From positions 1-54,967 of the forward strand of contig JABFSN010000060.1 of the NCBI GenBank assembly GCA_013140575.1: a stretch of DNA of 54,967 nt. Reading direction: 5' to 3'. Positions 6,743-9,358 of this stretch are shown piece after piece (positions within the stretch are counted from its first letter, which is position 1; every line of letters begins with the position of its first letter). Origin of the DNA: Phycisphaerales bacterium. GTDB taxonomy: Bacteria; Planctomycetota; Phycisphaerae; UBA1845. A program made the translations under genes and the position numbers. Below the pieces are notes generated by a model. The model saw only the letters and a list, made by a program, of their open reading frames with translations. It did not search any database and was not told the DNA's origin.

Positions 6743-9358
6743 ATGCGATCGCGGTACACACGGATGGCGAGCGCGGCTGGGTTTGCGTGCTTGGTGGTCA
6801 TCGGGGGAACGAGCCCGGGCGAATCGCTGGCCGACGGCGGCGATGAGTTGAACACCCAACTGTCGGCCGGCGGGGCGACGATGACCGCGGCCGAAATATC
6901 GGAAGCCGCCAATCAGGTTTTGATGCTGCACGCGAGCGCGGTCGTGGCGCTGGCAGTGGACGCGACACCGGGAGCCGCCGTTCGTCTGACCGTGCCCATC
7001 GCCGGGCGTGAGCGCACGTTGGACCTGACGCCCCATTCGATTCGTTCCCCCAACTACCAGGTGTTCGAACAGCACGCCGACGGATCGTATGTGGCCATCG
7101 AGCCGGAACCGGAACGAACCCTGCGCGGGACGGTGGATGGGGCGCCGAACAGCAAGGTGGCGGCGTCGCTTCTGGACGAGGGGTTGTACGCCCGCATCGC
7201 GCTGTCCGACGATGTGGTTTACTGGATCGAGCCGTTGGGGCCGCACGTCGCCGGCGCGGGGGCGAGCGCGCACGTGGTCTACAACGCGGCCGACGCGATG
7301 GGCTGCGGGCAGTCGTGCGCGACGCAGGCCGAACAGTCGCCGTTTCACGTCGACGGGCCGTTTTCCGCGGGGGAATTCATCCCTTGCGACAACGGCATCT
7401 GCGTGGCGGAATTGGCCTGCGATTCCGACTTCGAATACTACCAGGACCACGGAAGCAACACGGCGGCTGTGCAGAATCAGATATTCCTGATCATCAACGC
7501 GGTGAACATGCAGTATGAGCGCGACGTCATCATCAAGCACGAGATCACGGCTACCATCGTACGAACGGCCGAGCCGGACCCGTACGGGACGACGAACTTT
7601 TCCGCGCTTCTGTCGAGCGTTCGCTCCCAATGGCTGCCGCCGAATCATCCGACCGTGCCACGGGACGTGGTGCATCTGTTTACGGGAAAAGACCTGACGG
7701 ACAACGGCGGGCCGTCCAATGTGATTGGGGTGGCGTGGGGATTGAATCTGATCTGCACGACGAGCGGCGTCTGCCTGGCCCAGTCCGATTTCAACAACAA
7801 CTTCAGTTGCAAGACGGACCTGACGGCCCACGAACTGGGGCACCTATGGGGTGCGGGCCACTGCAATTGCGTGTCCGGACCCGACCGGTCGACGATGAAT
7901 GCCAGCATCACGTGCACCAACGTTTTCCATCCGACGCAGACGATTCCGTCGATCGACGCACATCGCAACAGCCGGCAGATGCTGGGATGTCTGGATATTG
8001 AAGGCGGAACGGTCTGCGGCGACGGCGTGGTGGACGAGAATGAAGAATGCGACCCGCCGAACGTGCTGCACTGCGATTTGACCTGCCACTGGATCTGCGG
8101 CGACGGCGTCGTGCAGTCCGGTGAAGAATGCGACCCGCCCAACGGGGTGTCCTGCGACGACCAATGCATGTTTTTGCCCTGCTTCGGCGCTACCGGCGAT
8201 TGTTGCGCGCCGACGGGCGCGCCGGGGTGCGGCGACCCGCAGTGTTGCGCGGTGGTGTGTGCCGTGGACGTAAACTGTTGCGACGGGAATTGGGATGCTG
8301 GTTGCGCGTTCTTCGCGACGCAGGCACCGATTTGCGGTTGTCCGCAGTGCTCGACGGGCGACGATTGTCCCAATCAGACCGTCTGCACCACGCCGGAGTG
8401 CCAGGGCGGCATGTGCGTCTACCAGGCCAACACCGAGCCCTGCGACGACGGAGATTCCTGCACGATCAACGACCGCTGCGCGCAGCTGGAATGCGTCGGT
8501 ACGCCGGCGCCCTGCGACGACGGCGATCCCTGCACGATCAACGACCACTGCTCCCAATCGGAATGCACCGGATCGCCGGCGCCGTGCAACGACGGAATGT
8601 TCTGCAACGGCGTGGAGTTCTGTTCGAACGGGCAATGCCTGGGCACGACGGCGCCGTGTTTCGGCGATCCGTGCAATGAGGACGACGACAGTTGCTGCAC
8701 CGGCGTTGCGTCGCCGCCGTTCATCGTCCACGCGGACGGGCTGTTGGGAGAAACCCGACCGTGCACGGGCTATATCGACCCGCGCATTGAAAGCTCCAAC
8801 GGTTCGTCACTGGATCGCGGCGTGCAGGAGTTTGTGATCGCATTCAACGAGCCGGTCTTCGGGCCGGGCATGACCGCGGTGGGGCCGGGCGATTTCCTCA
8901 TCCGGCAGACCGGCGGCGGCGTGAAGCCGATCATACTGACCGTCGAGCCGTTGGGCGGGGATGGACGGGTCTATCGGGTGCTGTTGGATCGCGTCATCAA
9001 GGTGGGCGCGTGGACGACGATCCAGGCGCTGGTGGTCGATATCTGCGGCGACCCGATCACCAACGCCGGCGAAATGGGCCCCGGGATTCCGGAACCGGAC
9101 CGCATCGACGTCGCGCATCTTCCCGGCGACGTATCGCAGAACGGTAGTGCGCAGCCTTCGGACCTGATCTTTTTCCGGCAATTCCTAGCGCTGGGGGCGT
9201 TCACGCACTGCGGTCTGTTGGGTGACTATTTCGATATCGATCGGAACGGGTCGCCCGGTGAACCGGCCGATCTGATCCGTTTCCGGCAGATTCTCGCGGG
9301 CACGTCGCCTGCGACACGGGCGTGGCTGGGGCAGTCGTTGAACCAGACCCAGCCATAA
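6743..9358 (+). CDS. secreted reprolysin (M12B/ADAM-like) zinc metalloprotease with disintegrin-like Cys-rich repeats and C-terminal dockerin-like domain
   Basis: HELGHLWGAGH metzincin motif near 7828-7860. Two CGDGVV(D/Q)..EECDPP modules near 8020-8142. Repeated CDDGD(S/P)CTINDxC Cys-rich units. C-terminal DVSQNGSAQPSDLIFFRQ / DIDRNGSPGEPADLIRFRQ dockerin-like repeats. Signal peptide follows the M at 6743, and an AAGGA RBS lies 8 nt upstream. Confidence 0.75.
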   Translation: MRSRYTRMASAAGFACLVVIGGTSPGESLADGGDELNTQLSAGGATMTAAEISEAANQVLMLHASAVVALAVDATPGAAVRLTVPIAGRERTLDLTPHSIRSPNYQVFEQHADGSYVAIEPEPERTLRGTVDGAPNSKVAASLLDEGLYARIALSDDVVYWIEPLGPHVAGAGASAHVVYNAADAMGCGQSCATQAEQSPFHVDGPFSAGEFIPCDNGICVAELACDSDFEYYQDHGSNTAAVQNQIFLIINAVNMQYERDVIIKHEITATIVRTAEPDPYGTTNFSALLSSVRSQWLPPNHPTVPRDVVHLFTGKDLTDNGGPSNVIGVAWGLNLICTTSGVCLAQSDFNNNFSCKTDLTAHELGHLWGAGHCNCVSGPDRSTMNASITCTNVFHPTQTIPSIDAHRNSRQMLGCLDIEGGTVCGDGVVDENEECDPPNVLHCDLTCHWICGDGVVQSGEECDPPNGVSCDDQCMFLPCFGATGDCCAPTGAPGCGDPQCCAVVCAVDVNCCDGNWDAGCAFFATQAPICGCPQCSTGDDCPNQTVCTTPECQGGMCVYQANTEPCDDGDSCTINDRCAQLECVGTPAPCDDGDPCTINDHCSQSECTGSPAPCNDGMFCNGVEFCSNGQCLGTTAPCFGDPCNEDDDSCCTGVASPPFIVHADGLLGETRPCTGYIDPRIESSNGSSLDRGVQEFVIAFNEPVFGPGMTAVGPGDFLIRQTGGGVKPIILTVEPLGGDGRVYRVLLDRVIKVGAWTTIQALVVDICGDPITNAGEMGPGIPEPDRIDVAHLPGDVSQNGSAQPSDLIFFRQFLALGAFTHCGLLGDYFDIDRNGSPGEPADLIRFRQILAGTSPATRAWLGQSLNQTQP

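Follow-up and report, generated by a model that had tools for sequence, protein, structure and literature searches.

The window analysed here is the whole 54,967-nucleotide contig JABFSN010000060.1 (forward strand; assembly GCA_013140575.1) of a Phycisphaerales bacterium (Planctomycetota), and our subject is one gene within it, 6743..9358 on the plus strand (stop codon included). It starts at an ATG and encodes an 871-aa protein with 57 Cys; the long open reading frame (ORF) spans 6680..9358 (+), and a GTG at 6680 gives a longer version. The 871-aa product is identical to the deposited 'MAG: hypothetical protein HOP29_05755 [Phycisphaerales bacterium]' (MAG, metagenome-assembled genome), and the same set of genes was also found on a 7.6-kb contig from Logan. 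A signal-like sequence and pro-region precede the catalytic domain, which is followed by two DUF4215-type modules, a CC-rich domain, CTDC-type repeats and finally a 218-aa module with a dockerin-like stretch in its last ~65 residues; an M14 carboxypeptidase-like gene lies upstream and an S9-family peptidase gene downstream. We think it likely that the product is a secreted zinc endopeptidase precursor of several domains, with a Cys-rich stalk and a dockerin-like tail, belonging to a large planctomycete branch of reprolysin-like (M12B-type) metzincins, and that the modules in its stalk are bacterial repeats. All motifs quoted in an earlier sequence-only reading of this DNA were found in the 871-aa ORF at the places given there. 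A full-length NCBIfam scan of the protein returned no meaningful match, and a promoter and terminator scan of 6300-10000 gave no signal exceeding shuffled expectation.

The catalytic domain (aa 215-420; 7385..8002, +) has the adamalysin/reprolysin fold according to Pfam, AlphaFold2 and Foldseek. It exceeds the Pfam cut-offs of Reprolysin_5 (E = 2.8e-13, 51 bits, cut-off 27), Reprolysin_3 (2.1e-11, 44.8 bits, cut-off 22.4) and Reprolysin_4 (2.7e-8, 34.2 bits, cut-off 22), and the classical, eukaryote-centred PF01421 stays just under its threshold (19 versus 20.8 bits). Modelled by AlphaFold2 from 121 aligned sequences, aa 205-480 reach a predicted local distance difference test (pLDDT) score above 90 in this domain. 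When the model was compared with the PDB by Foldseek, the top 50 matches were all M12B proteins, that is, snake-venom metalloproteases (SVMPs), ADAMs or ADAMTS proteins (E from 2.9e-15 to ~1e-11), led by VAP1 (2.9e-15), SVMPs, ADAM8/33 and ADAMTS. Catalytic-only chains aligned with target-normalised TM scores of 0.80-0.86 and a root-mean-square deviation (rmsd) of 2.3-3 Å over ~200 residues, at 15-23% identity. The zinc-binding motif HELGHLWGAGH (aa 363-373; 7829..7861, +) is an intact HEXXHXXGXXH, and H363, E364, H367, H373 and the adjoining Cys374 are invariant in the 65 homologues of alignment A5, as is the Met-turn methionine M385 within STMNAS (7895..7897, +). A hallmark of adamalysins is an Asp directly after the third zinc His ('HD'); in the planctomycete family that position is invariably Cys374. 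Because the Pfam matches, the modelled fold and the invariant zinc ligands and Met-turn all agree, we conclude that this is a genuine reprolysin-fold metzincin, as had been proposed, but one of a bacterial branch. Its conserved active-site residues and the model suggest that it is probably catalytically active.

The first ~30 residues (MRSRYTRMASAAGFACLVVIGGTSPGESLA; 6743..6832, +) read as a probable Sec signal peptide. They are followed by an N-terminal pro-region (aa ~31-214; 6833..7384, +) that is conserved across the planctomycete family in alignment A5 and has no significant Pfam or NCBIfam match. Near its end, ~25 residues N-terminal of the catalytic domain and within a consensus 'GGxCG', lies Cys192 (nt 7316-7318), which is kept in at least 90% of the aligned homologues. 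By analogy with the zymogens of ADAMs and matrix metalloproteinases, this suggests Cys192 as a candidate cysteine switch.

At the other end of the protein is a conserved 218-aa module (aa 654-871; 8702..9355, +; 19 homologues, alignment A2), composed of an unassigned conserved region, presumed to be a beta-rich domain, and a dockerin-like pair, and ending in ...QP. The 19 matching proteins (E from 1e-58 to 3e-34) share 39-51% identity with it over 82-100% of its length. They are mostly short stand-alone proteins of 180-358 aa, all ending in ...QP, and a Trp is conserved among them; a more distantly related copy (30-31% identity) is found in two reprolysin relatives, P0030 and P0038. Among the matching proteins (P0121-P0139), the short stand-alone ones are secreted, with a recurring 'WWTIDGGG...FELSGTIGQPDAG...FELTGGFW' in their N-termini. 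A fragment covering aa 651-795 gave no significant match in Pfam or NCBIfam. The module looks like an undescribed family of surface or anchoring modules of the Phycisphaerae.

The dockerin-like domain within it (aa 791-855; 9113..9307, +) contains two EF-hand-like loop-helix segments, DVSQNGSAQPSD-LIFFRQFL (loop 9128-9163) and DIDRNGSPGEPAD-LIRFRQIL (loop 9233-9271); the quoted motifs DVSQNGSAQPSDLIFFRQ and DIDRNGSPGEPADLIRFRQ lie at aa 796 (nt 9128) and aa 831 (nt 9233), respectively. By inspection of the sequence, EF-hand donor positions are retained in both loops (D-V-S-Q-N-G..D and D-I-D-R-N-G...D), and the two helices show 77% self-similarity in DNA. The module profile matches dockerins in the PDB (6kg9, 9.7e-6; 4fl4, 1.8e-5; CelD 1clc, 2.3e-4; Xyn10B 1ohz, 9e-3) in alignments that cover both loop-helix segments, and 20 of 22 module members match Pfam Dockerin_1 (E<=1; best 3.1e-8). 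On these two grounds the dockerin-like tail, which the sequence-only reading had also recognised, is upheld at the level of the family profile. The window's own copy matches neither Dockerin_1 nor EF-hand models in Pfam at E<=10, and because of this it may be degenerate; NCBIfam gave no significant match for it either.

What such a tail binds is a separate matter. Cellulosomal enzymes carry type I dockerins (PF00404), which consist of two tandem segments of ~22 residues, each with a helix after an EF-hand-like Ca2+ loop; the tail resembles them in its duplicated loop-helix with D-x-[DS]-x-[DN]-G...D loops, over both of which the family profile aligns. The differences are that it sits on a peptidase from a non-cellulolytic phylum, has a one-residue insertion in loop 2, carries a conserved Pro where cohesin is recognised, stands between a fixed conserved domain and a conserved ...W...QP end, and in the window's copy falls below Pfam detection. 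It is possible, if rather doubtful, that the 218-aa module is not a cohesin-binding dockerin and instead serves as a Ca2+-stabilised binder of the cell envelope or of polysaccharide, or as a C-terminal sorting or secretion signal of Phycisphaerae exoproteins. Such a role would suit a module that is kept as one unit at the identities given above, with its invariant ending and conserved Trp, and that mostly makes up the bulk of short secreted proteins; the second loop being longer than in canonical dockerins, the failure of the window's copy against Dockerin_1 and the lack of a cohesin in any of 30 ORFs of the window point the same way. The profile matches, however, are specific to solved type I dockerins, Dockerin_1 recognises nearly all members of the module family, and cohesin/dockerin pairs have been reported from Phycisphaerae genomes (PMC6461901). 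We continue to read the tail as dockerin-like.

Between the catalytic domain and this tail lies a Cys-rich stalk, which opens with two CGDG..EECD modules. Module 1 (aa 425-451, CGDGVVDENEECDPPNVLHCDLTC; 8015..8095, +) begins with CGDGVVDENEECDPP at aa 425 (nt 8015) and is a short 'PP' form of the DUF4215/TIGR02232 repeat; it also fits a relaxed Ca2+-site-II motif, discussed below. Module 2 (aa 452-478, CGDGVVQSGEECDPPNGVSCDDQC; 8096..8176, +) begins with CGDGVVQSGEECDPP at aa 452 (nt 8096) and is a tandem duplicate of the first; in the DNA the two form an 81-nt tandem pair, 8013-8076 and 8094-8157, of 80% identity. A full-length Pfam scan gave no match in this region, and the fragment aa 421-480 was needed to find them: it matches DUF4215 (PF13948) at 3.1e-7 (31 bits, cut-off 27) and TIGR02232, the 'cysteine-rich acidic repeat' (myxo_disulf_rpt), at 1.3e-6 (28.1 bits, cut-off 20.8), each in two stretches, so that both modules exceed the curated cut-offs.

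The same unit is widespread outside proteases. As a 27-29-aa four-Cys unit, CG[DN]GxVxxxEECDPPxxxxCDxxC, it occurs in 14-15 tandem copies in the non-protease proteins P0099, P0104 and P0108, and the four-Cys CGxG module was seen in at least 111 non-protease proteins among those collected. In P0142 the short 'CDPP' form stands beside the canonical long DUF4215 form, 'CDDGN..GDGC'. An exhaustive phmmer search with aa 330-480 against 1.84 billion representatives returned 1546 matches at E<=1e-3, with multi-repeat DUF4215-type proteins dominating the top of the list; an earlier word-indexed search with aa 416-543, of a kind weak on Cys-rich sequence, had given 5. Compared with DUF4215 and the TIGR02232 'Myxococcus cysteine-rich repeat' at large, the window's modules are a short, 27-29-aa, four-Cys 'PP' variant, present in two copies only and attached to a protease, whereas the others form long arrays. 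By these sequence matches the CGDGVV..EECD modules are common bacterial Cys-rich repeats and not disintegrin domains, resembling only the first ~24 residues of a disintegrin.

The sequence-only reading had called these modules disintegrin-like, and its claim holds in part. As a disintegrin domain the region fails, because it is assigned to repeat models, has no Disintegrin match, and lacks Ca2+ site III, an RGD loop and a Da arm. Disintegrin (PF00200) was matched neither by the full protein at E<=1 nor by the fragment aa 421-480 at E<=10. The motif used for Ca2+ site III of the Da arm, CD(X)2(E/D)XCXG(X)4C(X)2(D/N), is absent from the protein in both strict and relaxed form, there is no RGD/KGD loop, and nothing resembles the Da arm. 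ADAM_CR was also without a match in Pfam for the full protein and for fragments (E<=10), the Cys-rich parts that follow being the CC-rich domain and CTDC-type repeats. Of the refuting outcome which that reading had named for this region, half came about: the modules are Myxococcus-type repeats, but to say that they have no disintegrin similarity would be untrue, as their four-Cys spacing is that of the ADAM10 disintegrin start and their profile finds only ADAM17 and ADAM10 starts in the PDB.

That similarity is short and specific. Ca2+ site II of the Ds shoulder is described by the motif XCGN(X)3EXGEXCD (PMC4885070). The strict motif is absent from the window protein, and a relaxed motif with oxygen-donor substitutions occurs twice, as CGDGVVDENEECD and CGDGVVQSGEECD; each of the four side-chain ligand positions is occupied by an oxygen donor (D/D/E/D in the first module, D/Q/E/D in the second). 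When a profile of 26 bacterial modules was searched against all PDB sequences at E<=10, there were nine matches, every one of them the start of a disintegrin domain of ADAM17 (best E 0.0034, 20.7 bits) or ADAM10. For calibration, a search with the 25-residue start of ADAM10 itself gave bitistatin, VAP1, catrocollastatin, ADAM22, ecarin and ADAM17 at 16.5-24.8 bits, a range of bona fide disintegrin domains within which the 20.7 bits of the module profile falls. Module 2 aligns with ADAM10 without gaps and with 12 of 24 residues identical, all four module Cys falling on ADAM10 Cys, and the spacing C-x10-C-x7-C-x3-C is identical in the two. Eight residues separate module 1 from C416, the last Cys of the catalytic domain, which is also the distance in ADAM17, and HMMER aligned the whole junction gap-free. 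The same junction of catalytic domain and module is found in P0018, P0031, P0216 and P0244, which with the window protein make five of the 90 HEXXHXXGXXH proteins collected; those four have one module each, the second one in the window protein having arisen by local tandem duplication.

These observations bear on the proposal that the catalytic domain and the first module together are a true homologue of the ADAM M + Ds 'shoulder' unit, ancestral to it or exchanged with eukaryotes, with DUF4215 as the shoulder's prokaryotic relatives. Besides the profile matches, their calibrated score, the Cys spacing and the recurrent eight-residue junction, Foldseek alignments to P-III SVMPs, ADAM10 and ADAM17 extend over 231-302 columns, compared with ~200 for catalytic-only chains. 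Those longer alignments have an rmsd of 6-15 Å, however, because the modelled modules are of low confidence, with pLDDT of 48-58 in the AlphaFold2 model of aa 205-480 and 53 when the two modules were modelled alone from a 39-row repeat alignment; for the same reason a Ca2+-binding fold of the modules can be put forward from the motif only. The missing Disintegrin and ADAM_CR matches and the missing Da arm, Ca2+ site III and integrin-binding loop tell against common ancestry, as do a module that occurs independently as a tandem repeat, chiefly in bacterial proteins other than proteases, and that follows the catalytic domain in just 5 of 90 family proteins, a match of only 15-25 residues that is rich in Cys and acidic residues and prone to convergence, and a catalytic domain with 15-23% identity to eukaryotic M12B. 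We therefore consider homology of the whole unit unlikely.

The comparison with eukaryotic ADAMs and P-III SVMPs (MEROPS M12B, M-D-C architecture), ADAM10 and ADAM17 in particular, has two sides. The proteins are alike in catalytic fold, in HEXXHXXGXXH and Met-turn, and in a Cys-rich acidic segment eight residues after the last catalytic Cys, which fits the relaxed site-II consensus and has its Cys spaced as in the Ds shoulder. The window protein differs in having no full disintegrin domain (Da arm, Ca2+ site III, disintegrin loop), ADAM_CR, EGF or transmembrane segment, in its Cys for Asp after the third His, in a PF01421 score under the cut-off, in an identity of only 15-23%, and in a different pro-domain with no Pep_M12B_propep match. 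A literature search found no described link between DUF4215 and disintegrins. The Ca2+-site-II motif, shared in its relaxed form, and the common Cys spacing and distance from the catalytic domain are what gives this link wider interest. At similarly low odds, the DUF4215 'CGxG..E.C[DE]PP' module would be a prokaryotic homologue of the Ds shoulder, and the lineage of the window protein, P0018, P0031, P0216 and P0244 would have preserved an ADAM10/17-type junction or exchanged it with early eukaryotes. Were that so, a role could be assigned to DUF4215, that of building rigid spacers around a buried structural Ca2+ site, and the link would point to a bacterial origin for part of the ADAM ectodomain and bear on its assembly; if the likeness arose by convergence, it illustrates how a Ca2+-binding Cys-rich motif can recur.

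The remainder of the stalk is made up of two further Cys-rich parts. The first is a CC-rich domain of ~46 aa (aa 486-531; 8198..8335, +) with the pattern DCCxxxGxPGCxDxxCCxxxCxxDxxCCxxxWDxxC, also present once each in P0018, P0031 and P0012 and twice in P0140; it had no match in the local Pfam copy, in NCBIfam or, by profile search, among PDB sequences (zero). P0140 and P0094 bear the precomputed label PF26780, which may denote the same domain. The second comprises repeats of the Dictyostelium CTDC type (CxDGDxCTxNDxC...; aa 533-655; 8339..8707, +), identified by BLASTP to P0003 and by DNA repeats, with CDDGDSCTINDRC at aa 567 (nt 8441) and CDDGDPCTINDHC at aa 591 (nt 8513). In the DNA, three 72-nt tandem units encode the CDDGD repeats (8437-8652), the later two sharing 83% and 63% identity with the initial unit. 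In P0003, PF00526-positive Dicty_CTDC repeats align with the region at E 1e-4, one residue being inserted; fragment scans of Pfam and NCBIfam gave no PF00526 match for the window's own region, and PF00526 does match in homologues.

The enzyme belongs to a populous family. A word-indexed search gave 259 homologues, almost all from MAGs of Planctomycetota/Phycisphaerae and often named 'M12 family metallo-peptidase', with 38-51% identity to the window protein and E down to 2e-141. They share the ~180-aa N-terminal pro-region and the catalytic domain (~42% of the query) and then diverge into varied C-terminal add-ons: in the 65 members used for architecture counts, Dockerin_1 occurs in 12 and Dicty_CTDC in 10, others carry Big_1, fn3, Ig or galactose-binding-like domains, and many further family members end in paired D-x-D-G-D motifs. 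The closest homologue, P0002 (L002 8001-13322), stands in tandem with a 968-aa reprolysin-like paralogue bearing Ig domains, which indicates local gene duplication in the family.

Phycisphaerae are abundant degraders of particulate organic matter. These architecture counts change how the window protein should be seen, as the combination of protease, Cys-rich region and dockerin, which had been called unusual, is not. Andrei et al. (2019) described cohesin and dockerin modules in the Phycisphaerae, and put forward a hypothetical complex, the 'planctosome', with a cohesin adaptor onto which M12B Reprolysin4-like endopeptidases and M14 carboxypeptidases would dock through their dockerins (PMC6461901), so that dockerin-bearing M12B proteins of this class were already in print. 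The window gene, a reprolysin-like M12B endopeptidase of a Phycisphaerae genome with a dockerin at the family level, fits this picture together with the adjoining M14 gene. It shares with planctosome M12B peptidases and other planctomycete M12 proteins the pro-region, the catalytic domain, the variable add-ons (Dockerin_1, Dicty_CTDC), phylum and class, and an M14 gene next door. It differs in the two DUF4215 modules right after the catalytic domain, rare at 5 of 90, and in a dockerin that is embedded in a distinct 218-aa module and may be degenerate in this copy; the M14 protein beside it lacks a dockerin, and neither a cohesin nor the lamin-tail-domain (LTD)/P-domain anchoring protein of the planctosome was seen in the 55-kb window. 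The protein thus joins an already known type, the planctomycete reprolysin-like secreted peptidase with dockerin, and its residual novelty is the similarity of DUF4215 to the Ds shoulder at an ADAM17-like junction. In practical terms, a 'hypothetical protein' entry can now be given a name, that of a secreted, reprolysin-like zinc endopeptidase whose Cys-rich repeats are of the DUF4215 and CTDC types and whose C-terminal module is dockerin-like, and the gene becomes one more candidate for the proposed cohesin-dockerin, protein-degrading surface machinery of the Phycisphaerae.

Several observations weigh against the reading of the gene as a tethered reprolysin-like peptidase: the Cys in place of the adamalysin Asp, the low model confidence of the modules, the lack of a Dockerin_1 or EF-hand match for the window's tail, the lack of a detectable dockerin in the M14 neighbour, the lack of a cohesin-domain protein among 30 ORFs of the window (Pfam), and an M14/S9 adjacency that is not seen around the homologues P0002 and P0018. 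The opposite extreme, a non-catalytic adhesin or pseudo-protease whose functional part is the Cys-rich region, draws on the fact that more than half of the protein consists of non-catalytic Cys-rich or binding modules and on the DUF4215 repeats in adhesive proteins of diatoms (bioRxiv 10.1101/2023.03.06.531300), but we regard it as highly improbable given zinc ligands, catalytic Glu and Met-turn that are intact and family-invariant in an active-site domain modelled at high confidence.

If the protein is indeed a tethered peptidase precursor, it would be exported by Sec through its N-terminal signal-like sequence and then cross the outer membrane, perhaps by a type II secretion system. The conserved pro-region would keep the enzyme latent, possibly with Cys192 as a cysteine switch. 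In each CGDG..EECD module, the D/D(Q)/E/D residues at the ADAM site-II positions may hold a single structural Ca2+, in which case the stalk would be a rigid spacer of Ca2+-stiffened DUF4215 and CTDC modules. The dockerin-like tail would tether it, in a Ca2+-dependent manner, to a cohesin-like or other partner on the cell surface. Extracellular protein could then be digested near the cell, as in the planctosome model, and the adjoining M14 and S9 exopeptidases, which have lipoprotein-like N-termini, could trim the products.

Horizontal acquisition, which had been raised as a possibility, was not borne out. The gene's G+C content at third codon positions (GC3) is 0.80, like that of the flanking genes, and its relatives are hundreds of planctomycete homologues. 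With these, and with 15-23% identity to eukaryotic M12B structures, a recent transfer from a eukaryote to the bacterium was rejected; we found no sign of one.

The genes on either side also encode peptidases, as had been noted before. Upstream, the M14 carboxypeptidase-like gene (3462..6410, +; Pfam Peptidase_M14, 6e-17) encodes an unusually long protein of 982 aa with a possible lipoprotein signal (..LAAIVSTGC). Its match to the M14 profile is confined to aa 76-250 and to the first half of the profile (positions 2-137 of 286), and an acidic, Lys-rich low-complexity linker (..DSKDDKDDKDD..) is also present. Downstream and convergent lies a serine peptidase gene of the S9 prolyl-oligopeptidase family (9889..11871, -; Pfam Peptidase_S9, 1.2e-47), again with a possible lipoprotein signal (..LAAGSGC). 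A conserved peptidase operon was considered and rejected, because the neighbourhoods of P0002 and P0018 differ and do not have this adjacency.

Elsewhere in the window, parts of a type II secretion system or type IV pilus are scattered at 16422-17231, 20318-22123, 30092-31210 and 42938-46031, namely one secretin, two T2SSE ATPases and two proteins with a prepilin-type N-methylation motif; the type II components could be the peptidase's export route. Upstream of the M14 gene, at 2821-3353, two small overlapping ORFs look like a HicB-antitoxin/HicA-toxin pair, one with a weak precomputed HicB_lk_antitox match and the other with a YcfA/HicA-like sequence. Between 26000 and 30000 the G+C content drops to 0.59-0.60, compared with ~0.63-0.66 elsewhere in the window, and this region, which may be a foreign island, contains a gene (26952..28430) for a 492-aa protein with T5orf172/MUG113 (GIY-YIG-like) domains. 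Near the end of the window, a second metzincin-like ORF (53747-54961, -) shows only short Matrixin, Met-zincin and Reprolysin_5 matches around its HExxH.

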